A stretch of DNA of 64,000 nucleotides from Patescibacteria group bacterium (GCA_038065255.1 JBBTRI010000001.1:42911-106910), one strand, 5' to 3'; shown: positions 6,274 through 43,050, numbered from the stretch's first letter. The notes: a model not told the origin generated them from the letters alone. Made by a program: numbers and translations.

Positions 6274-6656
6274 ATTGTAGATACAACTTTAAGATGAGGG
6301 AGTGATGTAAAATCTTTGATATTTTTTGTAACGAGTGTTGCGCTATATTCTAATGCTGTTGCTGCAATAAGCAAATCGGCTTTGCCGCGCCGGCGGGTAC
6401 GGGAAAGAATGCCTGCTCGTATTGCGATTGCCATTGTGATTGGAAAAATGTCAAGGTGTTTAAGAGCCGTGTCAATGCGCCTTTGTTCAGAGTCTGACAT
6501 TCCGGCAAGTGCGTAGAGTTCCATGACAGTAACAACTGAAATAGCGATAGAGGTGGTATCGGAATGCGGCACTGGAATAGTCCCATTAAGTATGCCGATA
6601 ACATAGTTGCTATCCAAGAGAAAACACTCTTGAAAAGCAGAATACGCTAGCGCCAT
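6270..6656 (-). CDS. vapC: PIN-domain toxin VapC
   Basis: LLDSNYVI near the N-terminus (first acidic PIN residue) and ADLLIAATALEYSATLVTKNIKDF C-terminal PIN motif. Confidence 0.75.
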   Translation of the reverse strand: MALAYSAFQECFLLDSNYVIGILNGTIPVPHSDTTSIAISVVTVMELYALAGMSDSEQRRIDTALKHLDIFPITMAIAIRAGILSRTRRRGKADLLIAATALEYSATLVTKNIKDFTSLPHLKVVSTI

Positions 6657-6808
6657 AGTTGTTTTCGGATACGCTCAATATCTTTCGGCGCACGTTTTTT
6701 TTTACTCCACATTCCTGAAAGAAGTTTCAAGGCATGTGCTGCATTGGGAGTTTTTTGTCGGAGAGAAACGCGTGCTTCGATAGTGTTAACTCTTGGTGAT
6801 ACATTCAT
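6647..6808 (-). CDS. Putative VapB-like antitoxin (53 aa, absent from the ORF track)
   Basis: My own translation is MNVSPRVNTIEARVSLRQKTPNAAHALKLLSGMWSKKKRAPKDIERIRKQLWR. Its stop overlaps the vapC start (ATGGCGCTAG), the classic antitoxin-toxin coupling. Confidence 0.5.
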   Translation of the reverse strand: MNVSPRVNTIEARVSLRQKTPNAAHALKLLSGMWSKKKRAPKDIERIRKQLWR

Positions 6809-6825
6809 AGATAGATAGATAGATA
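6807..6825. repeat. (ATAG)n tetranucleotide microsatellite, about 4.75 units
   Basis: atagatagatagatagata read directly from the sequence. It overlaps the putative antitoxin start codon. Confidence 0.7.
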
Positions 6826-6883
6826 TGGTATGTCCTAGTTATTCTACGACAGAGTATTCTGCCGGTCAATACGCTTTTTGTGG

Positions 6884-6921
6884 AAATAAAAAAAGACCTC
6901 GGAACTGGAGTGTTCCGAGGT
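6884..6921 (-). terminator. Rho-independent terminator (minus strand)
   Basis: 10-bp stem acctcggaac/gttccgaggt with a 6-nt loop, followed on the minus strand by a U-run (plus strand aaataaaaaaag). Confidence 0.5.
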
Positions 6922-7029
6922 GGTTGCCGCGTGTTTCGCGGGTGCCATGAGATCTGGCGGTTAAGGTACGATGTTGTGACTTCGAGCTCTTGCCTGGCTG
7001 GCAGTCGGGCTGCTCTGCGTTGATGCGGC

Positions 7030-7644
7030 CTAGAGGTCGATCGACGTTTTCGTCGAGTCTACGACAAACGCCTCCGACCCATCGGCATTGCCCTGCCGAC
7101 GGATGCCCGGACCGGTCTTGGTCATCCGGCTGTTCAGCCAGAGGATCAAGTTGGGCGACGAGAAGGCGATGTTGAACCGCTCGCCTTCGACCATGGAGTC
7201 CGGTGCTAGGACACCGAAACGCGTGGCGTAGGCTTCCTCGCGGATGAGGACGGGACCGTCGCCGATCCCCCAGCCCACTCTGTCGCTTTTCAGCTTCTTG
7301 TCCCAATTGTTAATTGAGACTTCCTGCTGGCCGCCCCCGGATTTTGCGTCCTTTATCATGATGAACGTGTTGGCCGAGAACTGGATGTGGAGGCCGCCTT
7401 TGTCCCTCCAGATCCAGTGGTACCCGTCCGAAGATGGGTGCCAGCCGGTGTTCGGGTTGGTCTGGGACGGTGGGTATACTCCCGGGTTGGCGGCATTTGG
7501 GGTACACTCGTACCCCGGTTGGCACCACCCCGGTCTGGTCGGGTAGGGATTCGGGTAGTATGGGTACATTGGCTGGCACCCGATGCCAGCCAATGCCGCC
7601 ACCGCTCCGAGGAGCAGGATGGCGGCAAGGACGAACCGTTTCAT
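7030..7644 (-). CDS. Secreted/lipoprotein-like protein in the GC-rich island
   Basis: Begins MKRFVLAAILLLGAVAALAGIGC (signal peptide plus Cys). About 65% GC against a roughly 46% backbone. The track's 438-aa ORF is an upstream over-extension. Confidence 0.55.
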   Translation of the reverse strand: MKRFVLAAILLLGAVAALAGIGCQPMYPYYPNPYPTRPGWCQPGYECTPNAANPGVYPPSQTNPNTGWHPSSDGYHWIWRDKGGLHIQFSANTFIMIKDAKSGGGQQEVSINNWDKKLKSDRVGWGIGDGPVLIREEAYATRFGVLAPDSMVEGERFNIAFSSPNLILWLNSRMTKTGPGIRRQGNADGSEAFVVDSTKTSIDL

Positions 7645-7721
7645 TGCTATCCTTTCACCCCGCGCACGCCTCTTAGCGAGTCGTGCAGTGAGCGTGCGCG
7701 GGGACTCGTCGAAGTGGGTCG

Positions 7722-8840
7722 CTAGAAGTGGATGCTGGTAGTCAACCCGAGCGACACGTTGTCGCCGGGCTTGCTGGGAGCGAGGATCTCGAGTCCGGCC
7801 GTGACGGAGTCCGTCACGTCGAAACCGAGGCCCACCCCCGCCTGCGCCTTGAGGTGCTTGGTCGGATCGAAGGCTGTCGCGCCGGCCGGGAAGAGCTGCC
7901 GGCCCTGCCCGACCACGTGGACGTTGAGTTGCGGCAGCTGGCTGAGTGGCCGAATACCGAGTTCGAACCGCGCGCCGTTGGAGGAGTTGGGCAACGACGA
8001 CGCTATCTTGGCGCGGTGATACCACCGTCCGTGATCGCCGTTCCAACTGGTGTAGATGTTCACGGGATTGGTGGCCAGCGAGCTGTCGCCCTGGAGGAGA
8101 AAGTCGTACGAGACTCCGGCCTCCAGCTGGTTGCTGGGGTCGACCTGGAAGCGCAAGCCCACGAGGGGACCCGCCACCACGGAATCGCTGGCGACTTTGT
8201 CGCGCCAGCCCCATGAGTTGTCGCGGCTGTAGCCGGTGTGGAGCCCTCCCATGAGGGTCCACTTGTCGTCGATCCGGACACCCCCCTTGAGGTCGGCGCT
8301 GCCGGCGCTGGTGCTGCCGCCCAACTGGCTGTTGAGCGGATTCCACGTCGTGAGATCCTGTCCCAACTGCAACTCGACGTTGCAGCAGAAACCACTCACG
8401 TTGCCGTAGCTGGGGTGGGTGTTGCCACTGTCGCTCGACGGCTGGCTGCCGCCGCTCGATGCCACCATGGTGGTATTGTTGCCGTTGCTGGCGCCGCTGG
8501 CTGCGGCGACGACGTGGGTCGTATTGCCGTTAGCGGGCTTCCAGCCGAACGGGTAGTTGCCCACCCGCAGGCCAGTCACCTTGCCGCCGATGACCGCGTT
8601 GATGTCCGTGTAGCCATTCGGGCCGAGCAGGATCCGGTATGTCGGGACGCCGTCCTTGCTGGGGACGAGTCTCGCCATTCCCGGCGGGATTGTCGTGATG
8701 TTGGCGAGCGCGGGTGCGGTGATTAGCCGCTCCCGGAGGCTCTGCCCCATCCCGATGTCCCGGAGAGTGGTTGCCGATGCCGCGCTCTGGAGGAGCACGG
8801 CGAGGATGCCCGAAAGGGCAATTGCCATGAGGCCGCGCAT
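7722..8840 (-). CDS. Outer-membrane beta-barrel (porin-like) protein in the GC-rich island
   Basis: Signal peptide MAIALSGILAVLLQSAASA, a Gly/Ser/Asn/Thr-rich body with alternating hydrophobic residues, and a C-terminal ...TTSIHF ending in Phe (the OMP signature). A strong RBS aggaggtaac precedes it. Confidence 0.5.
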   Translation of the reverse strand: MRGLMAIALSGILAVLLQSAASATTLRDIGMGQSLRERLITAPALANITTIPPGMARLVPSKDGVPTYRILLGPNGYTDINAVIGGKVTGLRVGNYPFGWKPANGNTTHVVAAASGASNGNNTTMVASSGGSQPSSDSGNTHPSYGNVSGFCCNVELQLGQDLTTWNPLNSQLGGSTSAGSADLKGGVRIDDKWTLMGGLHTGYSRDNSWGWRDKVASDSVVAGPLVGLRFQVDPSNQLEAGVSYDFLLQGDSSLATNPVNIYTSWNGDHGRWYHRAKIASSLPNSSNGARFELGIRPLSQLPQLNVHVVGQGRQLFPAGATAFDPTKHLKAQAGVGLGFDVTDSVTAGLEILAPSKPGDNVSLGLTTSIHF

Positions 8841-9250
8841 GTAGTTACCTCCTTATGCGTGCGGCGTTGGGATACTTTGCGTTTTTTCACTTTTCAGCAG
8901 GACTCACGCATTCGAAGAATAATGAAATCTTTTTATGTCAGTACTCATTTTTTTGAAACAGGTATTTTTCTGCTGAAAAATCCTTCTTACTCCCGCCGTC
9001 GCGGTCCGTAGGTTCCAAAAAATGAATACCGCCATAAAGATTTCATTAGCTCTCTAGAGTAATTTTCTCCAAATGCGGTAGTCCTGCTTCTAATTGTCAA
9101 ATTTCGGTGTCATTGCCGATGAAAGGCGCTAAAAACAGCCTATTCAAAAGACATAATGACTTAGCAGAAGTATAGCACAAAAATAGGAAAATGTCAAGAT
9201 AGGAGCGGTGGTTATAACGATTTTTTGAATACATTTTGTACTCAGGGGTA

Positions 9251-9279
9251 TTGACAAATCAAAAAAAGTATGATATCAT
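9251..9279 (+). promoter_or_regulatory. Sigma70-like promoter TTGACA-N17-TATCAT
   Basis: ggtaTTGACAaatcaaaaaaagtatgaTATCATa, sitting in the AT-rich spacer inside the GC island about 70 nt upstream of the lipoprotein gene. Confidence 0.4.
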
Positions 9280-9353
9280 AAGCTTCAATCGCTCCTGCCC
9301 TGAAAAGCTCGAGCAAGAGTTCCTCAATCGCGCGATCGAGAAAGGATACCCTC

Positions 9354-10064
9354 ATGATCCGCACCAACCCGACGGGGTTGGCGGGGATCGCTCTGTCGAT
9401 GGTCGTAGCCGCGTGCTCGACCGTCCCAACCGGCCTGCCCCCAGGCATGCCGGGAGGAGCGACCCCCCCAGCCACGTCCCCCCCGGCGTCGGGATCGACG
9501 TCGGCCTCCGTCCCGCTCCTGCCGCCGGCTCCGGTGGCGTCGGCTTCGACTCCCGTAGGGATGCCGACTGCGACGCCAACTTCGGTTCCGGCACCAGGCC
9601 TCCTGCCCCTTCCCATGTCGGGCGACAAGAAGCTGAGCGTCAGCTTCGCGTCCTCGACAGTCAAGGCTGGCTCGTTCAGTCCTGGTGTCGCAACTCTCGA
9701 TGTGAGAGAGTGGATCCCGCAAGCGGGGAAATTCACCCTCACCGGCAGGATCCTTGCAGATGGCCGATGGAAGGCCGTTACGCAGGAGTACAGTGGGAAT
9801 CCCCCTCGAATGATCTTTTTCGAGGTGGAGCCCGTGTGGACTCCGGGAAAGGTGACTGGTTATTTCACAGTAACTGGTCCGAACGGCGACCTCACAATCG
9901 TCGCAACGTCGGACTTCACTGTGGAGGCTACCACAAGCCCGACCCCGGTTCCCACCACGGCTCCCACTGCGGCACCGACCCCGGTTCCCACCACGGCTCC
10001 CACGGCGGCACCGACCCCGGTTCCCACGCCGACCGCGAGCCCCTCGGGGACAGGCGGTCTCTAG
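9354..10064 (+). CDS. Lipoprotein with Pro/Thr-rich tandem-repeat tail (GC-rich island)
   Basis: Lipobox VVAAC|S after a signal peptide; PPGMPGG and PT-rich linkers; a C-terminal repeat PTPVPTTAPTAA. Confidence 0.55.
   Translation: MIRTNPTGLAGIALSMVVAACSTVPTGLPPGMPGGATPPATSPPASGSTSASVPLLPPAPVASASTPVGMPTATPTSVPAPGLLPLPMSGDKKLSVSFASSTVKAGSFSPGVATLDVREWIPQAGKFTLTGRILADGRWKAVTQEYSGNPPRMIFFEVEPVWTPGKVTGYFTVTGPNGDLTIVATSDFTVEATTSPTPVPTTAPTAAPTPVPTTAPTAAPTPVPTPTASPSGTGGL
9939..10034 (+). repeat. 36-bp tandem repeat, about 2.7 copies, inside the lipoprotein CDS
   Basis: ccgaccccggttcccaccacggctcccac(t/g)gcggca appears twice, followed by a partial third copy. Confidence 0.7.
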
Positions 10065-10104
10065 GGACTGTCGCCACACAACGGCACATGGTGTGCCAAC
10101 CCCC

Positions 10105-10140
10105 GGCCCTTTGCAAATGCATAGGGCCACTTTTTTTATT
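10105..10140 (+). terminator. Rho-independent terminator
   Basis: Stem ggccc...gggcc followed by actttttttatttt. A second small hairpin ggcacatggtgtgcc lies just upstream. Confidence 0.5.
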
Positions 10141-10230
10141 TTACCCACATGTGCTCTTGATTTTTTTTCAAAAACATGTCAGGATAAAGCCTTGTCGGCT
10201 AAGCCGACGTTTCATAGACATAATCCTCAT

Positions 10231-10857
10231 ATGCATTCAAAGGCATCATACTTTTTTAACCATTGGAAAACTATCCTTGGTTTTGCGCTTATTGGCGCCG
10301 TATTGGGGTTGGTAGGAAGTTTTTTGCGCCCTCTCGAATACAGCTCGACATTGAGTTTACTTATCGTACCCAAAAATATCAGCACAGCGGATCCCTATAC
10401 GGCGCTGCGCTCCATAGACCGCATTGCCGATAACCTTTCCCAAATAGTCTATACGTCTACGTTTTTTGATAAAGTGTTTTCCAAAAGCGCCGGTCCCGAC
10501 CGCGCGCAATTTGGGTCTGATGAAATTAAAAAACGCAAAAAATGGCATCGATCAGTTGCCGTCAGTATCAACCGCGGCACAGGTCTGTTCAAGATTACAG
10601 CCTACCACCTGCAACCAATTCAAGCTCGTCTGTTGGCGGAAAGCGTAGCGGATGTATTGATTGCCGAAGGATGGCAGTACGTGGGTGCTGATTTTGAAAT
10701 TAAACTTGTCGATGCGCCGCTGGAATCGCGCTATCCCGTGCGGCCAAACATACCATTTGTTGTTCTTGGCAGTATGCTTGCAGGAATCAGCGCAGGATTG
10801 ATCTATGTCTTCTGGCACTATCACACACACAAACAGCGCATATTCGGGATTGGATAA
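10231..10857 (+). CDS. Wzz-like polysaccharide chain-length determinant (short form)
   Basis: N-terminal TM helix, then PLEYSSTLSLLIVP (the P-x-Y/LIV pattern of the Wzz N-domain), and a C-terminal TM. The track start at 10093 overlaps the terminator; the ATG at 10231 is preferred. Confidence 0.45.
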   Translation: MHSKASYFFNHWKTILGFALIGAVLGLVGSFLRPLEYSSTLSLLIVPKNISTADPYTALRSIDRIADNLSQIVYTSTFFDKVFSKSAGPDRAQFGSDEIKKRKKWHRSVAVSINRGTGLFKITAYHLQPIQARLLAESVADVLIAEGWQYVGADFEIKLVDAPLESRYPVRPNIPFVVLGSMLAGISAGLIYVFWHYHTHKQRIFGIG

Positions 10858-15049: not shown

Positions 15050-17137
15050 ATGAAGCAATCATCAAAAATGCGCCTCTCTCCGCGCGCAAAGCTCCGTTGG
15101 ATTATCGCAGGAGTATTTCTCCTTACACTTATTGCAACAGCCTACAATAGCATTGAATTTTATAATGCCAATAAAGGCGCACTCGAAGCGCGACTCCGTA
15201 CGGTTGAGCCTCTTAAAGGTATTTCACTCCCTGAGATTCATATTCCCGTCTGGCCCGCGGAACGCTTTAGGCTTGGACTTGACCTTCGCGGAGGAACCCA
15301 TCTTGTGTATCAGGCTGATCTGGCAAAAACAGCTGCAAAGGACCAGACTTCCGCGCTTGAAGGCGCGCGAGATGTTATTGAGCGGCGCGTGAATATGTTT
15401 GGCGTTGCAGAGCCGGTTGTACAAACAGTAAAAGTAGGCAACGATTATCGTATTATTGTGGAGCTTGCGGGGGTAAGTGATATTTCGCAGGCAATCAAGA
15501 TGATCGGCGATACGCCGCTTTTGGAATTCAAAACAGCTAATCCGGCAAAAGATCAGCAGGTTATTATGTCATTGACCCCCGAACAACAGAAAGAGATCGA
15601 TACATTCAATGCCGATAGGCGCGCAAAAGCAGAAAGTGTTTTGAAACAGGCAAAGGAAGGAGCGCAATTCGGAGAGCTCGCAAAAAGCTTTTCCGATGAT
15701 GAACTTACAAAAGAAAAGGGCGGAGAGGTGGGATGGCTCTCGCCGGATTCCCAAGGAAATGCCCTCTATGATATGGCCGCAAAAGGAAAAACAGGCGAGC
15801 TGCTCCCCGATATTCTCACAGGACCGGATGGCCTCAGTATTGTGAAGGTCTTAGGGGCGCGGGATAATGGCGAAATAAAAGCAAACCATTTATTGATATG
15901 CTATAAGGGTGCACAGAGCTGCAGCAAGGAAACGTCAAAGGATGACGCGCGAAAACAACTAGAAGATTTGAAAAAACAGCTTACCAAAGAAAATTTTGTT
16001 GAATTTGCAAAAAAATATTCCACCGAACCGGGAGCACCGGAACGTGGCGGTGATTTGGGGTGGTTTGGCAGGGGCGTTATGGTCAAACCATTTGAGGACG
16101 GAGCGTTTCCGCTCGCCAAAGGCGCAATTTCAGATAGTATCGAAACTGCATTTGGGTATCATCTGATTTATAAACAGGATGAGCGGACAGTAAAGCAGTA
16201 TAATGTTGCGCGGGTGCTGTTGAAAACAAAATCAGCTGCAGATTTCCAGAAAAAGCCCGACGAGTGGCTGGCGACAGAACTTACCGGTAAGCAGTTGAAA
16301 CGGGCATATGTTGACTTTGACCCGCAAACACAGGCTCCCGAAGTGGGTTTGGAATTTGACGATGAAGGAAAGAAATTGTTCGGCGATCTTACAGCGGCAA
16401 ATGTTGGTAAGGAAATTGCCATTTTCTTGGATGCTCAGCCGATCAGCATTCCGCGAGTGAACCAGCCGATCAAAGAAGGCAAGGCTGTGATTACCGGAAA
16501 TTTTGCGCTTCAAGAAGCAAAGCTTTTGGCACAGCGCTTAAATACGGGCGCGCTGCCGATTCCTGTCACACTCATCAGTCAGCAGACAATTGGAGCAAGT
16601 TTGGGAAACGAATCACTTCAAAAGAGCTTACAGGCGGGACTCATCGGATTTGCGCTTGTTGCACTGTTCATGATCCTGTTTTATCGCATACCCGGCCTCA
16701 TAGCCGTGATCGCTCTCTGCATGTATGCAATGCTTACCCTAGCGCTTTTCAAGATCTGGCCGGTAACATTGAGCCTTGCGGGTATTGCGGGTTTTATCCT
16801 TTCGGTCGGTATGGCTGTGGATGCGAATATCTTAATTTTTGAACGCATGAAGGAAGAGCTTCACTGGGGAAAGAATCTCGATGGAAGTATTCGTGATGGG
16901 TTTAGGCGTGCATGGACATCTATTCGCGACAGCAATATGTCGTCATTGATTACGTGCTTTATCCTCTTCTGGTTTTCCGCAAGTCTTATCAAAGGTTTTG
17001 CGTTGACGCTTGCATTGGGTATTGCATTGAGCATGTTTACCGCGATTGTCATTACACGAATGCTCTTGCGTTTGGTATCCGGCTGGAAACTGCGTAACCA
17101 CGAATGGCTATTTAACAATACAAAAAAGAACGTATGA
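15050..17137 (+). CDS. secD: Protein translocase subunit SecD with inserted parvulin (PpiC) domains
   Basis: SecD TM core at both ends. Internally, two rotamase-like segments: ...GGEVGWLSPD... and ...GGDLGWFGRGVMVKPFEDGAF...FGYHLIYK. Confidence 0.85.
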   Translation: MKQSSKMRLSPRAKLRWIIAGVFLLTLIATAYNSIEFYNANKGALEARLRTVEPLKGISLPEIHIPVWPAERFRLGLDLRGGTHLVYQADLAKTAAKDQTSALEGARDVIERRVNMFGVAEPVVQTVKVGNDYRIIVELAGVSDISQAIKMIGDTPLLEFKTANPAKDQQVIMSLTPEQQKEIDTFNADRRAKAESVLKQAKEGAQFGELAKSFSDDELTKEKGGEVGWLSPDSQGNALYDMAAKGKTGELLPDILTGPDGLSIVKVLGARDNGEIKANHLLICYKGAQSCSKETSKDDARKQLEDLKKQLTKENFVEFAKKYSTEPGAPERGGDLGWFGRGVMVKPFEDGAFPLAKGAISDSIETAFGYHLIYKQDERTVKQYNVARVLLKTKSAADFQKKPDEWLATELTGKQLKRAYVDFDPQTQAPEVGLEFDDEGKKLFGDLTAANVGKEIAIFLDAQPISIPRVNQPIKEGKAVITGNFALQEAKLLAQRLNTGALPIPVTLISQQTIGASLGNESLQKSLQAGLIGFALVALFMILFYRIPGLIAVIALCMYAMLTLALFKIWPVTLSLAGIAGFILSVGMAVDANILIFERMKEELHWGKNLDGSIRDGFRRAWTSIRDSNMSSLITCFILFWFSASLIKGFALTLALGIALSMFTAIVITRMLLRLVSGWKLRNHEWLFNNTKKNV

Positions 17138-18036
17138 AAACATTCAACATCATCAACAAAAGGTATTTTTGGCTTTCGATTTCGGCAGGCATGCTCGTAG
17201 TTGGCATTGTGGCATTGGCGCTTTGGCAGCTGAAGTTCGGCATCGATTTCACCGGCGGAAGCCTTTTGGAAGTTGCATATTCCCAATCGCGGCCCCCATT
17301 GAAGGATTTGAACGGCATACTTGAACACGCAGGCATTAAAGATGCGGAGATTAAACCATCGGGGGAGAGGGGCGTTATTTTCCGTTTTAAAACTGTTGAC
17401 GAGCCGACACATCAGGCGATCATAGCTGGATTGAAAAAAGAGGACAGTGCTCTTGTTGAACGGTCATTCGATTCGATCGGGCCCATCATAGGAAGCGAGC
17501 TCAAACAGAAATCGATTATTGCCATTGTGCTGGCACTTGTGATGATATTGCTGTATATCTCGTTTGTATTCCGAAAAGTATCATTTCCTGTTGCTTCGTG
17601 GAAATATGGCACATGTGCTATTATAGCGCTCTTCCATGATCTTCTGTTTGTTCTTGGCATATTCGCATTCTTGGGACATTTCGGCGGCATTGAAGTGAAC
17701 AGTTCGTTTATCCCGGCATTTCTGACGGTTCTTGGTTTTTCGGTGCATGATACGATTGTGGTATTCGACCGTATTCGTGAAAATCTCACCAAATTCCGCG
17801 GGGAATTCGAAGATATTGTGAATAAATCTCTCAATGAAACAATTGTTCGCTCTATTAATACGTCGCTAACAGTGCTTCTGGTGCTTCTCGCCATTTTCTT
17901 TTTTGGCGGTGAAACGATCAAAACATTTTCCCTCGCGTTACTGTTGGGTATTGCCATCGGAACCTATTCATCAATTTTTGTTGCATCACCAATGCTGGTG
18001 GCATGGAATGAATGGGAAGCAAAACATAAGAAGTAG
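17134..18036 (+). CDS. secF: Protein translocase subunit SecF
   Basis: The start overlaps the secD stop. GIDFTGGSLLEV and FSVHDTIVVFDRIREN are SecF motifs. Confidence 0.85.
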   Translation: MKTFNIINKRYFWLSISAGMLVVGIVALALWQLKFGIDFTGGSLLEVAYSQSRPPLKDLNGILEHAGIKDAEIKPSGERGVIFRFKTVDEPTHQAIIAGLKKEDSALVERSFDSIGPIIGSELKQKSIIAIVLALVMILLYISFVFRKVSFPVASWKYGTCAIIALFHDLLFVLGIFAFLGHFGGIEVNSSFIPAFLTVLGFSVHDTIVVFDRIRENLTKFRGEFEDIVNKSLNETIVRSINTSLTVLLVLLAIFFFGGETIKTFSLALLLGIAIGTYSSIFVASPMLVAWNEWEAKHKK

Positions 18037-18107
18037 TATGTAGAGAGATAGCATCTAATCCCTCCGCGATAATGCCTCATGTGTGGCATTGAAATTGTGA
18101 GTAAAAA

Positions 18108-19523
18108 GTGCTATACTATACCTATATGGAATTTTTGCTCGACTTGATTCCAAATTTTTCTAATCCGTTTTCCGCAATGTGGTGGATGTTAAGCGGGGGC
18201 GGTTGGTTTATTATCCTTCTCATTTCCGTCAATGGCTTGTGGAAAATGTGGCTGAAAGACAGGCGCGGAGCCTATCTTGGGGCTATTGATTATGTTTTTT
18301 TGGCCATCAATGTTCCCAAGCAGACAGAACAGCCTCCGAAAGCGATTGAAAATTTCTTTCTTCACATGACAGGGCTTTTCAGCGGCAAAGGAACGCTTAT
18401 CGATCGATTTTGGAAAGGGAAATTACAAGACCGTTTTTCGTGCGAACTCATTAGTCGCGGGGGATTTGTCCAGTTCTATGTCCGTATTGCGGCTAAATAC
18501 CGGCCATTACTTGAAGCTTCTATTTTTGCCCAGTATCCCGATGCTGAAATCACTGAGACGACCGACTATGTGCTCGATGTTCCTCAGTATTGGCCTGATG
18601 AAAATTATGAAATGTGGGGATCGGAGCTTGTTCTTACCAGGCCCTATATGTATCCCATCAAGACGTATATCAGTTTTGAAGATAAGCTTTCAGGAACATT
18701 CAAAGATCCACTTGCAACTTTATTCGAATACCTTTCAACGCTTAAACAGGGTGAGCAGGCATGGATCCAAATCGCCCTCGTTGCAACAGATAATACATGG
18801 CACAAAAACGGCCTTGATGAGGTGAAAAGGCTTATTGGGCAAAAAGTTTCCCACAAGAGCAGCGCCATTGATACGCTTACCAAGGGTCTGTTTGGATGGG
18901 TAGTGAATCTTGCACATGAGTTTACAAAAGAATTATTCGGTTTTGCCGGCAGTGGTCCGGGTGAGGGTGGCAAAGCCGCGGGAGGGCAGAACTATCCGAG
19001 TCTTATGCAATTTCTTTCTCCGGGAGAAAAAAATGTTTTGGAGCAAATTCAGATGAAATTAGCAAAGCCAGGTTTTTTTGTGAAAATCCGCTTGGTATAT
19101 CTGGCGCCGCGGCAGATATACATGAAACAGCGTGCGATGGCAGGTCTTTTGGGCGCATTCAAGCAATTTAGTATTCTTGATTTGAATACCTTCACCATGG
19201 ACGATTGTTCAAAAGTATCCGCAAATTATTTCTTTGTTCCCCAGCGCATAGCGAGGCGGCAGAACAAGCTTATGCGCGCGTATAGGAATCGTTCGGCTGT
19301 CGGAGGGCATCCCCCCTATATTCTTAATGCTGAGGAGCTTGCAACGCTCTGGCACTTCCCTATGATAGACATTGCCGCGCCGTTGTTGAGTAAAACAGCA
19401 AGTCGGAGGGGTGAACCGCCCAAATCACTTCCACTTCATGAGGTTGCCACTGCACCATCGCGCGCACCACTTCCTTCGCTGGAAGAAACAGAAGACACGC
19501 CAGATAATATTCCTTTTCTATGA
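18108..19523 (+). CDS. Membrane-anchored protein of unknown function, coupled to the downstream ATPase
   Basis: An N-terminal TM hairpin (WWMLSGGGWFIILLISVNGLW) followed by a large soluble domain. The stop overlaps the next start as ATGA. Confidence 0.4.
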   Translation: MLYYTYMEFLLDLIPNFSNPFSAMWWMLSGGGWFIILLISVNGLWKMWLKDRRGAYLGAIDYVFLAINVPKQTEQPPKAIENFFLHMTGLFSGKGTLIDRFWKGKLQDRFSCELISRGGFVQFYVRIAAKYRPLLEASIFAQYPDAEITETTDYVLDVPQYWPDENYEMWGSELVLTRPYMYPIKTYISFEDKLSGTFKDPLATLFEYLSTLKQGEQAWIQIALVATDNTWHKNGLDEVKRLIGQKVSHKSSAIDTLTKGLFGWVVNLAHEFTKELFGFAGSGPGEGGKAAGGQNYPSLMQFLSPGEKNVLEQIQMKLAKPGFFVKIRLVYLAPRQIYMKQRAMAGLLGAFKQFSILDLNTFTMDDCSKVSANYFFVPQRIARRQNKLMRAYRNRSAVGGHPPYILNAEELATLWHFPMIDIAAPLLSKTASRRGEPPKSLPLHEVATAPSRAPLPSLEETEDTPDNIPFL

Positions 19524-21097
19524 CAGACATTACACCGGTTGGCATTGCAAATTTCAGAAACCACAATCGGCGGTTCGGTATTAAAACCGACGATCGCCGG
19601 CGCCACATGTATATTATCGGTAAAACCGGCATGGGCAAATCAACCACGCTCGAGAATATGATCATAGAAGATATTCGCATGGGCAGGGGAGTTGGCGTTG
19701 TTGATCCTCATGGGGAGCTTGCTGAAACGATCCTTCGGTACATTCCTTCAAACCGCGTTAACGATGTTGTGTATATCAATCCCGGGGATATGGACTATCC
19801 GGTCGCGTTTAATATTTTGGAAACTGTTGACGAGCGGCATAAGCATTTGGTCGCATCCGGGCTCATGGGGGTATTCAAAAAAATCTGGCCAGATGTGTGG
19901 AGCCCTCGTATGGAATATATTCTTAACAATACCCTTCTCGCTCTCTTGGATTATCCGGGAAGCACCATGCTTGGCGTGAATCGCATGTTGGCGGATAAGC
20001 CCTATCGGCTTAAAGTTATTGAAAAGATAAAAGACCCTATCGTCAAGGCATTTTGGGTGAGCGAATTTGCAAAGTATAACGAAAAATTTGCGACAGAAGC
20101 CATTGCTCCTATTCAAAATAAGGTAGGGCAGTTTTTATCTGCTTCTATTATTCGCAATATTGTGGGTCAGGTGAAGTCGACTATCAATATTCGCGACATT
20201 ATGGATGAAGGAAAGATTTTGATCCTCAATCTTTCCAAGGGAAGAATCGGCGAGGACAACAGCCGCCTGCTAGGGGGTATGCTGATTACCAAAATTCAGC
20301 TTTCAGCCATGGAGCGCGTAGATGTGCCCGAAGAAGACCGCCGCGATTTTTTCCTCTATGTTGATGAATTTCAAAACTATGCTACGGAAAGTTTTGCGAA
20401 TATTTTATCTGAGGCGCGAAAATACCACTTGAGCTTGATTATGGCGCACCAATATATTGAGCAACTTGACGAAACTGTTCGTGCTGCCGTGTTTGGCAAC
20501 GTCGGAACTATTATTACATTCCGTGTCGGTGCCGGAGATGCGGAATTTTTAGTGAAAGAATTCACGCCGCGTTTTATTGAAGAAGATTTGGTGAATTTAC
20601 CCAAGCATGCCTTCTATATCAAACTTATGATCGATGGATTGGTATCCGATCCATTTTCATCAAACGGATTGCCGCCGTTTCCCAAAGAAGATATTACAGG
20701 CAACGAGGAAAAGGTCATTCGTGTTTCGCGCGAACGCTATGCAAAGAAACGCGAGCTTGTGGAAGAAAAAATCACACGGTGGACAGAGAGTATGCAGGAA
20801 GAAGATCGCAAACGCGAAGAACAGCAAGGAGAACGGATGACATCGCGGGATCGTTTTGACCGCGGTTCAGATAGACGTGACAGACCGCCGATGCGTTCGC
20901 GTCCTCCGCGTAGAGACGATCGTAGAGACGATCGCAGAGATGACCAATTTCAAGATCGTCCGCGCGCTCCCCAAGGAATGACGCATCCTCCTAGTCCAAG
21001 AAAAATACAACCAGCTCCAAGTCAGCCACCAATTTCTTTGACAGATTTAGCTGCAAAAAAACCAACGTCGTTTACAGGGCCAAAAAAAGCGCAGTAA
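19520..21097 (+). CDS. VirD4/TraD/TraG-like coupling-type ATPase (FtsK/HerA superfamily)
   Basis: Walker A IIGKTGMGKST, VVDPHGELAE (a DPKGE-like motif), Walker B FFLYVDEFQNY, and AHQY. The C-terminal tail is R/D-rich and low-complexity. Confidence 0.55.
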   Translation: MTDITPVGIANFRNHNRRFGIKTDDRRRHMYIIGKTGMGKSTTLENMIIEDIRMGRGVGVVDPHGELAETILRYIPSNRVNDVVYINPGDMDYPVAFNILETVDERHKHLVASGLMGVFKKIWPDVWSPRMEYILNNTLLALLDYPGSTMLGVNRMLADKPYRLKVIEKIKDPIVKAFWVSEFAKYNEKFATEAIAPIQNKVGQFLSASIIRNIVGQVKSTINIRDIMDEGKILILNLSKGRIGEDNSRLLGGMLITKIQLSAMERVDVPEEDRRDFFLYVDEFQNYATESFANILSEARKYHLSLIMAHQYIEQLDETVRAAVFGNVGTIITFRVGAGDAEFLVKEFTPRFIEEDLVNLPKHAFYIKLMIDGLVSDPFSSNGLPPFPKEDITGNEEKVIRVSRERYAKKRELVEEKITRWTESMQEEDRKREEQQGERMTSRDRFDRGSDRRDRPPMRSRPPRRDDRRDDRRDDQFQDRPRAPQGMTHPPSPRKIQPAPSQPPISLTDLAAKKPTSFTGPKKAQ

Positions 21098-21116
21098 CAG
21101 CCCAACACTGCTGTCT

Positions 21117-22685
21117 ATGCATGAAAAAAATGAAAAACTTCAACGGTACATCCGCATCATGATGGAAAAAAAGACGGTTGTGCCGGCAGATGAGCCGATG
21201 ATGAGCGTGAGCGAAGCGAGTAGTGCGCTCGCATTTTATTATGAAAAAATTAGAAACATTATTGATTATCAAGATGAGCATTTGCTTCGGCAAAATGCCA
21301 TTAAGCGCATTTTAAGCCGCCGCCTTATTTTTCAAGAATCTCGTTCAGATATAGCAGATGCGCTTGTTAAAGAACTTATCAGATCACGCTATTTTTCCAA
21401 TAACACCATACCTACATCAGCTGTTGTAAAAGTAGCGGAAATTCTTGACACGTTTGTTGGCGTTGCGGAAACACTGCGGCAAAACCATAAACTTTCCGAT
21501 GCTGATGAGGAGTGGTTACTGGGAATGTCTGCATGCGCCATTGATGAACTGCTCGCTCCGCTCACAAAGGAAGAAGCGCTTGTGCATTTGATGTATGAAC
21601 AGCTTGTCGATAGCGTGGAAAGCGGCGTGGAGGATGATAAACTGCGCAGACAGCAAGTGTATATTGCAACGTATCGCGTATTGCTCAGGCCCGATGCACT
21701 ACGCCTGCGATTTTTTGTTTTGAAACACACATTTCCGGAATGGACGGCATATGCGAAAAACCACAGTGACCTATTGACGGAAAGCTATGAACGCACGCGC
21801 GCAAGCATTGAAGCGCTTATTAAGCATCCGTTGAACCGCAGACTGACCCAAGCATTTCGAAGATTCCGTATCCCGTTTTTTATTTTACACACCATTATCA
21901 AAAAGCATGGGAATGCAGTACTTGAACAAGATACCCAATTGGAAGCGGAGATAACACGCCTCTGTGAATCACTCTACCAGATGCAGAAAAAACGCTTGGT
22001 ATCCCGTACTATCCGCGCATTCGTCTATATTTTTCTTACAAAAATGGTTTTGGGGTTTGCTATCGAGTTGCCTTACGACATTCTGACGCTTGGTCATGTC
22101 AATTCACTGCCATTGATCGTGAATGTTGTCTTTCCACCGGCACTCTTACTTGCTATTACGCTTTCTGTAAAATTTCCTAAAAAAGATAATACGGCAATGA
22201 TTGTGACTGCAATAAAAGAAATGATCGATGTGAATGCGCCCATGGCGGTATTTACTCCACAGCGATATCGTGAAAAAAAACGCTCACGTACGCTTACTGT
22301 TATTTTTACTATACTCCACCTTGCGCTGTTTGCCGTTTCATTCGGCGCTATTATTTGGGTGCTTCGAAAACTGCAATTCAATGCTGTGAGCGGGGTAATT
22401 TTTGTGCTCTTTGTCTGTCTTATCACATTTTTCGGCGTCAGTCTAAGGCGCTCGGTTCGTGACTTTATTATTATTAAATCAAAGCCAAGCTTTATTGCGC
22501 TTTTTTTCGATTCATTCTTTTTGCCGATTATTCAAGTCGGGCACTGGTTGTCGTTCAACATTTCCAGGATTAATATTTTTATCTTTCTCTTTGACGTACT
22601 TATTGAGTTGCCATTCCAAGCACTGGTGGAAATTACGGAAGAATGGTTTTCTTTTTTGAAAGAGAAAAAAGAAGAAATAGATTGA
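21117..22685 (+). CDS. Membrane protein of unknown function (C-terminal multi-TM)
   Basis: About 330-aa soluble N-terminus, then 4-5 hydrophobic helices. Co-directional with the ATPase pair. Confidence 0.35.
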   Translation: MHEKNEKLQRYIRIMMEKKTVVPADEPMMSVSEASSALAFYYEKIRNIIDYQDEHLLRQNAIKRILSRRLIFQESRSDIADALVKELIRSRYFSNNTIPTSAVVKVAEILDTFVGVAETLRQNHKLSDADEEWLLGMSACAIDELLAPLTKEEALVHLMYEQLVDSVESGVEDDKLRRQQVYIATYRVLLRPDALRLRFFVLKHTFPEWTAYAKNHSDLLTESYERTRASIEALIKHPLNRRLTQAFRRFRIPFFILHTIIKKHGNAVLEQDTQLEAEITRLCESLYQMQKKRLVSRTIRAFVYIFLTKMVLGFAIELPYDILTLGHVNSLPLIVNVVFPPALLLAITLSVKFPKKDNTAMIVTAIKEMIDVNAPMAVFTPQRYREKKRSRTLTVIFTILHLALFAVSFGAIIWVLRKLQFNAVSGVIFVLFVCLITFFGVSLRRSVRDFIIIKSKPSFIALFFDSFFLPIIQVGHWLSFNISRINIFIFLFDVLIELPFQALVEITEEWFSFLKEKKEEID

Positions 22686-22698
22686 TAGCTCCGACTTT

Positions 22699-23295
22699 TT
22701 GGTACATATGGGAACAATAGAAGTGATTGCAGGCTGCATGTTTTCCGGGAAAAGCGAAGAGCTGATTAGGCGCTTGAAACGCTGCATGATCTCCCGCAAA
22801 AAAGTGCTTGTATTCAAACATACCATAGATGAGCGATGGAACAGAAGCGAAGAATTGGTTAGCAGGAATGGTGCATCGTTGACAGCAATTCGTACTCATG
22901 AACCATCATATATACTTGCACGTTCAGAAGAAATGGATATTGTCGGCATCGATGAAGCACATTTCTATGACAAATCGCTTATTGGTGTCATTGAAGCGCT
23001 TCGCCAAAATAGCATTTCGGTAATTATTACAGGTCTTGATATGGATTTTCGCGGTGAGCCATTCGGTATTGTACCGCAGCTCATGGCGATTGCAGACCGA
23101 GTAGATAAGCTTGATGCTGTGTGTATGCTATGTGGAGAGCGTGCAACGCAATCCCAGCGGCTTGTTGATGGAAAACCGGCGCAGTATGGGAGTGAACAGC
23201 TTGTTGTGGGAGATGAGGAATACCAGGCACGCTGCCGCAAATGCCACGAAGTTCCCGGCAGAGAGCAGCTGCGGTTAATTGCCGAGCAGTATTGA
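22699..23295 (+). CDS. tdk: Thymidine kinase
   Basis: P-loop GCMFSGKSEEL, VIGIDEAHF, and C-terminal zinc ribbon CMLCG...CRKCH. Confidence 0.9.
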   Translation: MVHMGTIEVIAGCMFSGKSEELIRRLKRCMISRKKVLVFKHTIDERWNRSEELVSRNGASLTAIRTHEPSYILARSEEMDIVGIDEAHFYDKSLIGVIEALRQNSISVIITGLDMDFRGEPFGIVPQLMAIADRVDKLDAVCMLCGERATQSQRLVDGKPAQYGSEQLVVGDEEYQARCRKCHEVPGREQLRLIAEQY

Positions 23296-23332
23296 CAAAA
23301 TATGTTTTTCGCGCTATTCTAATGCTAGGTAA

Positions 23333-23575
23333 ATGATAATGTACGCAGATACCGGATATGGTTATCGTGATTGGGGTTATAATGAACCTTGCGCACCGTA
23401 CATCCCTGATTGTTCGCACATTCATACGCAGATACCCGGAGCTGTCCGAGTGGAGGAAAATAAGGAAGGCCCCTTTGCTTATATAGCCTATGTGAATGAA
23501 ATACAGTATCTAAATGGTCCTGAAGAAATTAACGGACAGCATATAATCTACCGTCTTATACCAGCCCGAATCTAG
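23333..23575 (+). CDS. Small hypothetical protein (80 aa)
   Basis: Intergenic ORF between tdk and mnmA; no motif recognised. Confidence 0.2.
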   Translation: MIMYADTGYGYRDWGYNEPCAPYIPDCSHIHTQIPGAVRVEENKEGPFAYIAYVNEIQYLNGPEEINGQHIIYRLIPARI

Positions 23576-39089: not shown

Positions 39090-40034
39090 CTAGAGTAAAC
39101 TTCTATGTCCATTGGCAAATTCAGCGCCGCTCATTGATTTCTTTCCTTCAAGTTGTACTGTGTCGAGCTGAAGAATGCCGGGAGTGCAACGTGCATATAA
39201 ATACTTCTTTCCGTTCTCGGATTTAGTAAAGAATGTTGTAGGTGGTAGTAGTTCATCATTTTTGTCGCCTAAAACCAATAGCGCTTCTAAAATTTTTAAT
39301 CTTTTTCCTTGGATAACCGTCCATGTGCCAGGCTCTGGATTGAGTGCGCGGATTTTTCGGTCAATTATCTCTGCTGATTCAGCAGAGAAATCTATACTAC
39401 CATCATCAAGATTTAGTAATTTCGTATATGTTGCTTGTGCGTGGTCTTGTTCGGTATATTTTACCGCATTGCTTTCTATTTTTGAGAGGGAATCTATAAG
39501 TAATTGTATCCCCACTTCAGTTGTTTTTTTTCGTAATGAGATAATCGTTTCGCGCATTTCAAGCTGTATTTTTTCTTGCGCTATGATCGGTCCATGATCC
39601 ATTTTTTCATCTAAGTGCATAATCGTTACACCGGTTTCTGAATCGCCATTCAATAAAGCCGTCTGCAGTGGAGAGGCTCCACGATATTTTGGAAGGAGTG
39701 ATGGATGGATATTGATGCAGCCTTTGTGCGGGATATCGAGAATAGATTTTGGAATAATCTGTCCGAATGCAACAACGATAATCATATCCGAGCTAAGATC
39801 GCGAATAGCATTAGTCCATTGAGTGTCGCGAATATGTTCCGGCTGCAATACTGGAATACCGTGGGCAAGCGCACATTTCTTTATTGGTGTAGGTTCGATG
39901 GTCTGTTTGCGGCCACTAGGACGGTCTGGTTGGGAAATAACAGTGCAAGGATTGAATCCGGCTGAGATAAGCCCTTCAAGATAGGGGACGGCATATTCAG
40001 GCGTTCCCATGAAAATAATGCGAGATGTGTTCAT
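39090..40034 (-). CDS. fmt: Methionyl-tRNA formyltransferase
   Basis: MNTSRIIFMGTPEYAV...; the formyl-transferase core (NIHPSLLPKYRG); a C-terminal domain. The start is set at an internal Met. Confidence 0.85.
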   Translation of the reverse strand: MNTSRIIFMGTPEYAVPYLEGLISAGFNPCTVISQPDRPSGRKQTIEPTPIKKCALAHGIPVLQPEHIRDTQWTNAIRDLSSDMIIVVAFGQIIPKSILDIPHKGCINIHPSLLPKYRGASPLQTALLNGDSETGVTIMHLDEKMDHGPIIAQEKIQLEMRETIISLRKKTTEVGIQLLIDSLSKIESNAVKYTEQDHAQATYTKLLNLDDGSIDFSAESAEIIDRKIRALNPEPGTWTVIQGKRLKILEALLVLGDKNDELLPPTTFFTKSENGKKYLYARCTPGILQLDTVQLEGKKSMSGAEFANGHRSLL

Positions 40035-40222
40035 AATGGGCTCTTGATGTTTTTTAATGCAGGATTTGTGAGGTGTAAGGTTTGCCATAATAATTGGACA
40101 TACTATACTAAGGGATATCATACTGCGTTACGTATCATATTGCAAAACACAGTATATATCAACGAGTTATCTGAAATGTGGCTTTCTTAAAATCATTTTA
40201 CTCAACATAACCTGAATGACGT

Positions 40223-40633
40223 ATGAATTCAAAAATAGAGTTAGCTATGAATCACGAAAGAGAAATAGAAATCAGCAAGGAAGACCGTGAAAAACTAAGG
40301 CAGCTTGAAGATTCAATGTGGATAGCTGAAACACGGTTTGATAGAGCATATATGGAAAGTGTACTTGCTCCGGATTTTTTTGAATTCGGGCGATCGGGGC
40401 GCATATACCAACGGGAAGATACACTCGGGGCGCGTGGTGATGAAATCAAAGCAAGGTTACCTTTTAAAAATTTTGAATTACGCCCCGTCGTTCAAGATGT
40501 CATTCAGGTTACTTACACCAGCGAAGTCGAGTATAATGGAGAAGTAGAGGTCGGTAACAGAAGCTCTATCTGGGTCAAAACTCCAAAAGGATGGAAGTTA
40601 AAATTTCATCAAGGAACGCCCGTAAACAAATAA
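40223..40633 (+). CDS. Small NTF2/SnoaL-like (DUF4440-like) protein, tentative
   Basis: Size and hydrophobic pattern only; no strong motif. Confidence 0.3.
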   Translation: MNSKIELAMNHEREIEISKEDREKLRQLEDSMWIAETRFDRAYMESVLAPDFFEFGRSGRIYQREDTLGARGDEIKARLPFKNFELRPVVQDVIQVTYTSEVEYNGEVEVGNRSSIWVKTPKGWKLKFHQGTPVNK

Positions 40634-40784
40634 GAAAGCCGCACATCGTACAATAGCGTGTATGCGGCTCGGCTGATGTCTCGACCATATGGCGTAATGA
40701 TGAGAAAAATTGTATCATTGCGCCACATCGCATACACGCGAACGTTGTACGAAATTTGTAATATTTTCATCCCTCATTTTTACT

Positions 40785-41399
40785 ATGAAAAACTCTAACA
40801 CGTGCCCATTTGGAGAAAAATTTCAAAAGTACTGGGACAAAAGGTACCAATTATTTTCTAAGTTTGACGAAGGCATCCAAGTTGATGAACAAGCATTGTT
40901 TTCTATCACTCCAGAACAACACGCGATTGATCATGCCAAGAGGTTGAAAGGAAAAATCGTCCTTGATGCTCTTGGTTGTGTTGGTGGAAACGCAATCGCG
41001 TTTGCTCAATATTGTAAAAAAGTTTATATGATTGAACTAGATGAGAATCGTATTAAAATGGCTGAAAACAATGCTCGCGTATATGGTGTCAGCAATAAAA
41101 TAGAGTTTATTCATGGTGATTATTTTGATGAGGCACCAAAAATTGAAGCAGATGTAGTTTATCTTGACCCGCCGTGGGGTGGCCCAGATTACATAGGTCT
41201 GAAAAAATTCAAATTGGATAATTTTTCTCCAAATGGGCATGACATACTTGAGCTAGCTTTTAAGCATTTTCCTCAGGTAGTAATGAGAATTCCAAGAAAT
41301 TTTGATCCGAAGGAACTTAAACAACTTAAACATGAATTTGAAGAAATTGACGATTACTCTGGTGAAAAGCTAGTTACAAAAACAGTCTATTTCAAATGA
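40785..41399 (+). CDS. TGS1-type RNA cap guanine-N2 methyltransferase family protein
   Basis: SAM motif VLDALGCVGGNAIAFA and the TGS1-specific amino-methyltransferase motif VYLDPPWGGPDY. Nearly colinear with the human TGS1 catalytic core. Confidence 0.7.
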   Translation: MKNSNTCPFGEKFQKYWDKRYQLFSKFDEGIQVDEQALFSITPEQHAIDHAKRLKGKIVLDALGCVGGNAIAFAQYCKKVYMIELDENRIKMAENNARVYGVSNKIEFIHGDYFDEAPKIEADVVYLDPPWGGPDYIGLKKFKLDNFSPNGHDILELAFKHFPQVVMRIPRNFDPKELKQLKHEFEEIDDYSGEKLVTKTVYFK

Positions 41400-41703
41400 A
41401 CTGGACGGTATAAAATATTACAAACATCGTACAACTAACGATATCTGGTTCCGCTACGCTCCATAAAAACTTCCTATATCCCTGACGTTATTCAAAAGCG
41501 CGGAGCGATTTTGAATAACACCGTCATACAGTTCAGAAAATAGCGATAAATTTTTAAATTTCAATAAGATATCGCTAATTTCCTCACCCAAACCATGCAA
41601 TTAGTTTCCATCCCTTGAAAACATATAAACTAATGTGTAAGATAGTTTATATGATAAAAAACTAGCAAACTATCTATGAAAATTGAAATTGGCCTAAATA
41701 TAA

Positions 41704-43033: not shown

Positions 43034-43050
43034 ATTTTTCTTTTGAATTA

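Follow-up and report, generated by a model that had tools for sequence, protein, structure and literature searches.

A type IV coupling-protein homologue in two pieces: a DUF8128 membrane protein and its ATPase neighbour on Patescibacteria chromosomes

Patescibacteria are unable to make nucleotides. In a 64,000-nucleotide stretch of DNA from a Patescibacteria group bacterium (GCA_038065255.1 JBBTRI010000001.1:42911-106910; the whole stretch is called the window below, and positions are counted from its first letter), three open reading frames (ORFs) follow one another on the + strand: ORF1 (18108–19523; 471 amino acids, aa), ORF2 (19520–21097; 525 aa), and ORF3 (21117–22685; 522 aa). An earlier reading of the sequence, here called the original prediction, took ORF1 for a membrane anchor and ORF2 for an ATPase resembling the type IV coupling proteins (T4CPs), split from that anchor, and noted that no VirB4, relaxase, or pilin lay nearby. 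The absence is borne out: a Pfam scan of most ORFs of at least 150 aa, together with inspection by eye of the small ORFs at 41.4–47.8 kb, found no VirB4, relaxase, pilin, or type IV secretion system (T4SS) gene in the 64-kb window. The question raised by this locus is what a coupling-protein-like ATPase does in such surroundings, and with which partner.

The features on which the prediction was built, namely the three ORFs, an ATGA overlap, the Walker motifs, and an R/D-rich tail, are all real. Homologues of the three proteins are numerous and the best are found at E ≤ 1e-280, so the ORFs are real genes and not chance reading frames. Lineage-named homologues of all three come exclusively from Patescibacteria (Uhrbacteria, Falkowbacteria, Magasanikbacteria, Parcubacteria). 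ORF1 and ORF2 are in different frames, and the stop codon of the first overlaps the start codon of the second in the sequence ATGA (19520–19523, + strand, as are all features of the three genes and the promoter-like site described below), an arrangement that suggests translational coupling of the two genes.

ORF2 is an ATPase of the T4CP family (TrwB/VirD4) that lacks a transmembrane domain (TMD). Pfam models, profile matches in the PDB, hhalign, and Foldseek TM-scores place it there and not with HerA, FtsK, or VirB4, as the original prediction had proposed. Three Pfam models pass their curated cut-offs (bits, with cut-off in brackets): TrwB_AAD_bind at 38.1 (20.5), matching aa 23–336, T4SS-DNA_transf at 26.5 (20.1), and TraG-D_C at 24.1 (22). 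The nucleotide-binding domain and its motifs are present, each motif aligning with its counterpart in TrwB: Walker A GKTGMGKST (aa 34–42; 19619–19645) with GATGTGKS, DPHGE (aa 62–66 in VVDPHGE, aa 60–66; 19703–19717) with DPNGD, Walker B LYVDEFQ (aa 279–285; 20354–20374) with LFIDELA, and AHQYIEQL (aa 309–316; 20444–20467) with GLQSTSQL. An insertion in this domain (aa 105–229; 19832–20206) is helical in the predicted structure and is the counterpart of the T4CP all-alpha domain. When PDB sequences were searched with the ORF2 family profile A3, TrwB (2.5e-6) and DotL (6.9e-4) were the sole significant matches, and hhalign aligned ORF2 with TrwB over 263 columns, including the helical insertion (93.8% probability, E 1.8e-7).

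The AlphaFold model of ORF2 (pLDDT 80, pTM 0.76) consists of a RecA-type core with the helical insertion and a disordered tail. In Foldseek searches with this model, TrwB (TrwB-deltaN70) gave the top TM-scores (TMt 0.60–0.65, root-mean-square deviation about 5 Å over about 400 columns), with DotL, Cagbeta, and HerA ranking behind it. VirB4 was not among the top 50 matches, hhalign found no match between ORF2 and the VirB4 protein TrwK, and models for VirB4-type ATPases scored poorly (AAA_10 at E 0.11; TIGR00929 at 17.8 bits vs a cut-off of 643). Against the NCBIfam equivalogs TraD, VirD4-like CD1115, TrbC, and CedD, ORF2 reaches 24–39 bits where the cut-offs are 250–800 (the top match is CedD, with 39 bits vs 600). 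Scores so far below the cut-offs mean that ORF2 is an orthologue of none of the named proteins. Canonical T4CPs (TrwB of R388, VirD4, TraD, DotL, Cagbeta) share with it the Walker A and B motifs, DPxGE, QxxxQL, and the all-alpha insertion; they differ in being only about 15% identical, in having their own two-helix TMD, in lacking a DUF8128-like domain (see below), and in being encoded with a relaxase and a T4SS. Hydropathy reveals no hydrophobic segment in ORF2, so the canonical N-terminal TMD in the same chain is missing, and the protein is predicted to be soluble.

Several of these searches also returned HerA, and an alternative in which the pair serves DNA repair or anti-phage defence as a HerA-type or defence-type module (e.g., MADS mad8-like), and not as a translocation motor, was weighed here. 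The general DUF87/HerA Pfam model passes its cut-off with 38.9 bits, HerA structures equal TrwB in Foldseek E-value, and the top PADLOC match, mad8 (66.7 bits, 6.2e-19), outscores every T4CP model and is followed by several HerA models. Nonetheless, the DUF87 score can be put down to the superfamily that these ATPases share, the HerA equivalogs of NCBIfam give only 13–16 bits vs cut-offs of 800–970, and the TM-scores of HerA (TMt 0.45–0.51) are below those of TrwB. Only a short beta-hairpin region (aa 4–22) precedes Walker A, and the model has no HAS-barrel. ORF1 has no match in PADLOC, no nuclease, SIR2, methylase, or other effector partner accompanies the ATPase, and the near-universal syntenic spread described below is unlike that of patchy defence islands. 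We consider a HerA-type or defence role improbable.

The C-terminal tail of ORF2 (aa 421–525; 20780–21094) is rich in R, D, and P (20 R, 13 D, and 15 P in 105 residues) and is disordered in the model from about aa 444, with pLDDT below 50 at aa 444–501. In most relatives a low-complexity linker leads to a treble-clef zinc finger (PF23477, CxxC-x17-CxxC) at the end of the tail. As compared to homologues that include P0037 and P0114, ORF2 has kept the R/D-rich linker and lost the zinc-finger cysteines.

We assign ORF1 to the DUF8128 (PF26449) family on the basis of its homologues, since the domain is precomputed in 114 of the 120 that were listed, including one that is 90% identical. ORF1 itself had no match in NCBIfam, PADLOC, or Pfam (in a set that did not contain the PF26449 model), a search of PDB sequences with the ORF1 family profile found nothing up to E 10, and no mention of DUF8128 or PF26449 was found in the literature searched. 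The original prediction of an N-terminal transmembrane (TM) hairpin must be revised. There is one hydrophobic segment (aa 21–41; 18168–18230), supported by hydropathy, charge count, and a long helix at aa 20–59 in the structure model, and thus a single-pass anchor. With KDRR behind this helix and acidic residues ahead of it, ORF1 is predicted to be oriented N-out/C-in.

ORF1 is more than an anchor, as about 90% of the protein is a conserved cytoplasmic domain of about 400 aa. The model (pLDDT 81.7, pTM 0.74) shows a core (aa 60–418; 18285–19361) of two alpha/beta lobes with a disordered loop at aa 277–294. The core ends in the motif EELATLWHFP (aa 409–418; 19332–19361), in which E409, E410, A412, H416, F417, and P418 are invariant, and is followed by a disordered tail (19362–19520; from aa 428 on, pLDDT is below 50) that contains a conserved EPPxxLP and a terminal PxN(I/L)PF(L) motif (19506–19520). 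The stretches conserved in the family alignment (A1) are YAQYPDAEITE, EELATLWHFP, EPPxxLP, and the terminal PxNLPF. Such a protein would serve as a membrane-tethered scaffold subunit.

The start of ORF1 is probably the ATG at 18126, which gives a protein of 465 aa, because close homologues start with ME[FL]LL and because the GTG at 18108 falls within the -10 box of a promoter-like site. This site, in the spacer between secF and ORF1 (18089–18117), is recognised by consensus alone (TTGAAA-17 nt-TATACT with a TG extension); it is sigma-70-like, the top match (10/12) within 17000–23400, and it ends 8 nt 5' of ATG 18126. If used, it would place the transcription start 1–2 nt before this ATG, and the mRNA of ORF1 may then be leaderless or nearly so. 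ORF1 may likewise have its own promoter, separate from that of secDF.

The relationship between ORF1 and ORF2 becomes clear from homologues in which both are joined. The PHROG family phrog_5156 (824 positions) matches ORF1 aa 106–337 at positions 75–291 and ORF2 aa 23–436 at positions 407–822. Gp156 of Bacillus phage G (825 aa) matches ORF2 with its C-terminal half (28.8% identity, E 6e-40 in tblastn) and the DUF8128 profile A1 with its N-terminal half (aa 17–324; hhalign 98.4%, E 8.8e-15). The top matches of the ORF1 model in BFVD (Foldseek) were gp156 (5e-17), a 913-aa protein of phage JL (7e-16), and a protein of phage Slash (4e-15). A tblastn search of ORF1 against phages gave no match, and the phage fusion is visible to profile methods only.

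Fused proteins of this kind also occur in plasmids. A tblastn search of ORF2 against plasmids returned 313 records, from Streptomyces (111), Bacillus (60), and Staphylococcus (33), as well as from haloarchaea and Sulfolobus. In pBM69, WP_003349917 (833 aa) matches ORF2 with its C-terminal half (E 2e-36) and DUF8128 with its N-terminal half (hhalign 97%, E 1e-10), and its gene is followed by those for a Replic_Relax protein, conjugal transfer proteins, and a large ATP-binding protein. In pHT73, WP_015386298 (966 aa; ORF2 match at E 1e-14) is followed by Replic_Relax, TcpD, TcpE, and another ATPase. WP_331738717 from an Embleya plasmid (812 aa; ORF2 match at E 9e-62) has an N-terminal TM helix and is flanked by PrgI and a VirB4-like ATPase on one side and by Replic_Relax and NlpC/P60 proteins on the other; its N-terminal half is only weakly similar to DUF8128 by hhalign, and the junction motif is present. 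The C-terminal halves of these three proteins are 25–31% identical to ORF2. In a 708-aa ORF2 homologue from Bradyrhizobium, the N-terminal part shows no DUF8128 similarity.

The two halves meet in a recognizable way. All fused and split homologues compared contain a motif of the form (I/L)xxxE(L/M)AxxxH(F/L/I)P, which in the fused proteins precedes Walker A by 70–90 residues. The corresponding distance in the window is 86 residues, of which the ORF1 tail contributes 53 and ORF2 33. As both the junction motif and its spacing to Walker A are kept, the split falls in the interdomain linker. ORF1 and ORF2 correspond, respectively, to the N- and the C-terminal half of a fused, extended class of T4CPs, with which they share domain homology, domain order, and the junction motif; the single polypeptide is what they lack. 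The tail of ORF1 is thus likely a former interdomain linker and a putative docking peptide for the ATPase. The idea of a split T4CP therefore stands insofar as fused homologues exist; the part split off, however, is a DUF8128 domain of about 400 aa with one TM helix and not the canonical short TMD. Since the halves match an extended class found in plasmids of Gram-positive bacteria and archaea and in Bacillus phages, the ancestral role was in DNA transfer.

The known relatives differ from the window pair in several respects. The T4CP-like ATPases of pBM69, pHT73, and Embleya share its motif order and the spacing from ELAxxxHxP to Walker A, but they are single polypeptides, plasmid-borne, and encoded beside Replic_Relax, VirB4-like ATPases, and PrgI, TcpD, or TcpE. 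The pBM69 protein has no N-terminal TM helix, unlike ORF1 and the Embleya homologue, and its ATPase match ends near aa 761 of 833, leaving little space for a long tail such as that of ORF2. Phage G gp156 and SPO1 gp27.4 (phrog_5156) cover both ORF1 and ORF2 but are fused, phage-encoded, and without an N-terminal TM helix. A split arrangement is also found in the haloarchaeal plasmid pNATPE02 (Natrinema), where a 395-aa protein (WP_006182425; DUF8128 at 95.2%, E 2.7e-8) overlaps the start of a 1003-aa ATPase (WP_006182424; 29.7% identical to ORF2). This pair is split and overlapping like that in the window; it differs in being archaeal and plasmid-borne, with no TM helix in the 395-aa protein, an ATPase twice as long, and a second large T4SS-type ATPase upstream.

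Three further observations concern these relatives. The closest relative of ORF2 outside Patescibacteria is a 395-aa ATPase on a plasmid of Sulfitobacter mediterraneus (NZ_CP081110; L090 6983-8170; 40.8% identity, E 2e-95), which is solitary, stands beside transposases with no DUF8128 gene annotated, and may reflect horizontal transfer. The fused gp27.4 of phage SPO1 adjoins the Replic_Relax nickase gp27.3 (L089 2747-6284), and the fused gp156 of phage G adjoins the VirB4-like gp155 (L088 1220-5362). Judging by their gene content, the SPO1 and phage G pairs are conjugation-type modules within lytic Bacillus phages.

A T4CP without its own TMD is not without precedent. TMD-less T4CPs with a separate membrane partner are a recognised subfamily, exemplified by TraJ/TraI of pIP501 (PMC7434980), and TraJ/TraI and the TraG-TraJ pairs (R27) follow the same principle, in which a soluble ATPase is brought to the membrane by an adjacently encoded protein (PMC7434980). 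Those partners are described as small, whereas ORF1 has 471 aa and a large conserved cytoplasmic domain. Similarly, CedD of Sulfolobales is a VirD4-like ATPase that is essential for DNA import and is encoded apart from the other genes of its system, and some CedD/TedD orthologues from Sulfolobales and Thermoproteales have no TMD (PMC11823120). ORF2 is not an orthologue of CedD, given the NCBIfam score above, and no DUF8128 partner has been described for CedD.

In Patescibacteria the pair is chromosomal and syntenic, and its adjacency is conserved phylum-wide. Our survey comprised 84 DUF8128 loci, and genes were listed for related loci with flanks of ±8 kb. An ORF2 homologue (63–80% identical) lies directly 3' of DUF8128 in 79 of the 84, and two more loci stop at a contig edge; co-occurrence of the upstream protein with the ATPase, which the original prediction had proposed checking across genomes of the candidate phyla radiation (CPR), is thereby confirmed. 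ATPase cores are 63–85% identical across lineages. The spacer between the two genes has an estimated median of about 27 nt in relatives, which makes the 4-nt overlap in the window a tight extreme. A DUF8128 profile search of 1.84 billion representatives found 3,532 clusters (50% identity) at E ≤ 1e-3 and 1,163 at E ≤ 1e-30, and two DUF8128 peptide motifs occur in at least 578 GTDB species representatives. By record name the lineages include Uhr-, Kerfeld-, Buchanan-, Falkow-, and Magasanikbacteria, Paceibacter, and Microgenomatus. Many records of metagenome-assembled genomes with this locus (L013, L015, L020, and others) are titled 'uncultured Gammaproteobacteria bacterium', which looks like a labelling artefact. 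The DUF8128 loci that stand without an adjoining ATPase (L043 3798-7610; L049 9265-12962; L066 9508-10212) belong to three species.

This distribution bears on whether an integrated conjugative element has left the pair behind as an inert remnant, as its plasmid- and phage-borne relatives and the lack of a relaxase or T4SS gene nearby could be taken to indicate. Both ORFs are intact with their ATGA overlap, however, the ATPase cores retain the identity given above over many lineages, and the pair occupies the same chromosomal position in several candidate phyla. The GC content of all three genes equals that of the flanks, and the annotated neighbours show no evident integrase or repeats. We regard decay as extremely unlikely.

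The conserved surroundings raise a different alternative, a protein-handling ATPase tied to Sec-dependent export. The gene order SecD-SecF-DUF8128-ATPase is conserved, with SecF directly 5' of DUF8128 in 27 of 84 loci and SecDF somewhere upstream in 55 of 84; SecA is also encoded in the window, and some T4CPs recruit proteins, DotL and Cagbeta among the structural matches being examples. In 50 of the 84 loci, however, a gene for a Sigma70_r4 and HARE-HTH protein stands between SecF and DUF8128, directly 5' of the latter, and in the window, where this gene is absent, SecF and ORF1 are separated by the promoter-like site. In reduced genomes a gene order often reflects inheritance and not function, and nucleic acid is the substrate indicated by the zinc finger, the R/D-rich tail, and the plasmid relatives. 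A Sec-linked function is in our estimate very unlikely, and this reading and that of a decayed mobile element are both weakly supported. The Sigma70_r4/HARE-HTH protein itself, of about 370–410 aa (L001 6775-7881; L003 6530-7762) and present in this place in most lineages, may assist the module as a DNA-binding accessory factor, or may have nothing to do with it.

A second structural resemblance was found for ORF1. In a Foldseek search of its model against the PDB, the top 13 matches are all chains of TrwK/VirB4 (R388), with E 5e-5 to 9e-3 and probability 0.91–1.0; the TM-score to TrwK is only about 0.33 (TMq), and the tool did not report the aligned TrwK range. The VirB4-class ATPase gp155 of phage G is an independent match (E 3.9e-6). 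ORF1 lacks a P-loop and the top 50 contain no further P-loop ATPase, so that the N-terminal domain of VirB4 is most likely what is matched. By hhalign, the DUF8128 profile had no match to four VirB4-class proteins (TrwK, pBM69 VirB4, Embleya VirB4, and gp155), and the likeness is thus one of fold only. VirB4 (TrwK, gp155) shares the overall plan of a non-ATPase N-terminal domain followed by an FtsK/HerA-class ATPase, although ORF2 itself is unlike VirB4. We treat the resemblance as a fold-level lead from the model, in which homology is not established.

From these data we propose that ORF1 and ORF2 form a split, exapted, membrane-tethered T4CP motor that acts most likely on nucleic acid, with the phylum's chromosomal T4SS as its most likely partner, a reading to which we give about an even chance. 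Translational coupling would provide the two proteins in matched amounts. ORF1, oriented N-out/C-in, would hold and organise a hexamer of ORF2 at the cytoplasmic face of the membrane, and its C-terminal PxNLPF peptide would be a possible contact to the hexamer. ATP hydrolysis would then power movement of a polymer towards or away from a membrane channel, the polymer being most likely DNA or RNA; a nucleic-acid substrate is suggested by the role of the family in plasmids and by the Arg-rich tail, usually bearing a zinc finger. The channel would most likely be the T4SS encoded elsewhere on the chromosome, working in export or in CedD-like import. Among the published findings that speak for the proposal, Quinonero-Coronel et al. 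2025 counted 5,713 VirD4-like T4CPs in 2,918 of 3,035 Patescibacteria genomes and found just 148 of these genes close to virB4 (PMC12102498); the precedents of TMD-less T4CPs with membrane partners and of CedD count in its favour as well.

Several observations weigh against this proposal. The link to a T4SS comes from family membership, as the 64-kb window has no T4SS, relaxase, or pilin gene, and none of the related loci whose genes were listed contains VirB4, T4SS, or relaxase genes. The conserved neighbours are SecDF and the Sigma70_r4/HARE-HTH protein and not transfer genes. In three of the 84 loci DUF8128 has no adjoining ATPase and is instead next to glycosyltransferase or DUF4012 genes, and the DUF87/HerA and mad8 scores of ORF2 have been given above. 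In S. epibionticum the T4CP homologue, whether DUF8128-linked or not, is non-essential while other T4SS genes are essential, which speaks against an obligatory part in that T4SS; the homologue was regarded as possibly exapted, and a partner protein was not described (PMC12102498).

The same facts can be read as signs of a housekeeping DNA or RNA translocase that works without a T4SS, either as an import motor at ComEC or another channel or as an FtsK-like membrane pump. The synteny is that of housekeeping genes, with SecDF upstream and MnmA and AlaRS downstream, the ATPase is very highly conserved, few T4CPs are near virB4, and the S. epibionticum homologue is dispensable. CedD provides a precedent for import (PMC11823120), and a 2026 preprint reports that a cultivated member of the Patescibacteria takes up host RNA by a mechanism that is unresolved, with a T4SS suspected (bioRxiv 10.64898/2026.06.21.733656). 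Even so, all non-CPR relatives with a readable context are in conjugation-type or phage loci, and CedD itself has a VirB4-like partner. With its single TM helix in ORF1, the pair encodes no channel of its own. A role as FtsK substitute is further weakened by the annotated ftsK of TM7x (PMC10768705), which leaves no need for a replacement. We therefore consider a T4SS-independent translocase rather unlikely. A more specific proposal, in our view unlikely, is that the pair is a CedD-like inner-membrane motor for import of host RNA or DNA, fixed early in the chromosome, in which DUF8128 is the surviving VirB4-like N-terminal domain. If that were true, the class would be an evolutionary intermediate between VirB4 and the canonical T4CPs.

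The third gene, ORF3, encodes a conserved membrane protein whose N-terminal half, about 290 aa long, is soluble and which has about five TM segments at aa 298–507. It has no match in Pfam, NCBIfam, PADLOC, PHROG, or the PDB; the residues invariant in its family include Y42, E43, R46, R64, K309, E317, P319, and N358. The original prediction had listed it as a second membrane protein that follows the pair. It adjoins the pair only in Uhrbacteria-like loci (L005–L009) and close relatives, and homologues elsewhere (Buchananbacteria and another lineage) are in unrelated contexts, one beside V-type ATPase genes and one beside PfkB/RecJ. With adjacency limited to one lineage and a varying context, ORF3 is rejected as a component of the module; it is a conserved Patescibacteria membrane-protein family and a lineage-specific neighbour.

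The trio is preceded by SecD, which carries a parvulin peptidyl-prolyl isomerase insertion, and SecF, and is followed by thymidine kinase, MnmA, and alanyl-tRNA synthetase (AlaRS). The remaining genes of the window are housekeeping genes (SecA, CofD, glycosyltransferases, ribosomal proteins, RpoA, ClpB, PriA, a penicillin-binding protein, and a Mur ligase). In SecD (15050–17137), the insertion is of the parvulin type (Rotamase_3) at aa 263–377, inside the periplasmic region; a second stretch elsewhere in the protein also matches Rotamase_3, and the insertion recurs in related loci. Two stretches of the window stand out in composition. At about 6300–10800 the GC content is 0.53–0.59 vs about 0.45, and long overlapping ORFs without a Pfam hit are found on both strands; an rRNA explanation for the GC-rich stretch (5.2–11 kb) was ruled out, as no Rfam family was found. 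At about 40000–48000 the GC content falls to 0.36–0.39, and there are many small, apparently cytoplasmic ORFs, two of them NUDIX-like and one pyrophosphatase-like by eye; this may be an acquired or fast-evolving island. Another 471-aa ORF lies within 47.8–54.7 kb, a stretch that was considered as a paralogous module; the equal length proved a coincidence, as the neighbours there are ClpB, PriA, and a LigB-family protein.

That Patescibacteria have orphan T4CPs was already reported in 2025 (PMC12102498). Neither VirD4 nor T4CP is named in the main text of Wang et al. 2023. The present analysis contributes the fission and the second subunit. DUF8128 is the obligate partner of the ATPase and carries the membrane anchor, and this gives a context to a family hitherto designated as a DUF. 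The VirB4-like fold of DUF8128 bears on the kinship of the two T4SS ATPase families, and a concrete two-gene target is now defined. Should the pair turn out to be an ordinary T4SS coupling protein, this would be a useful annotation and not a discovery. The T4SS of the phylum is essential in the one genetically tractable species. For the step that supplies energy or coupling, a T4CP-type motor that holds a fixed chromosomal position across many lineages, with no relaxase, is an obvious candidate.

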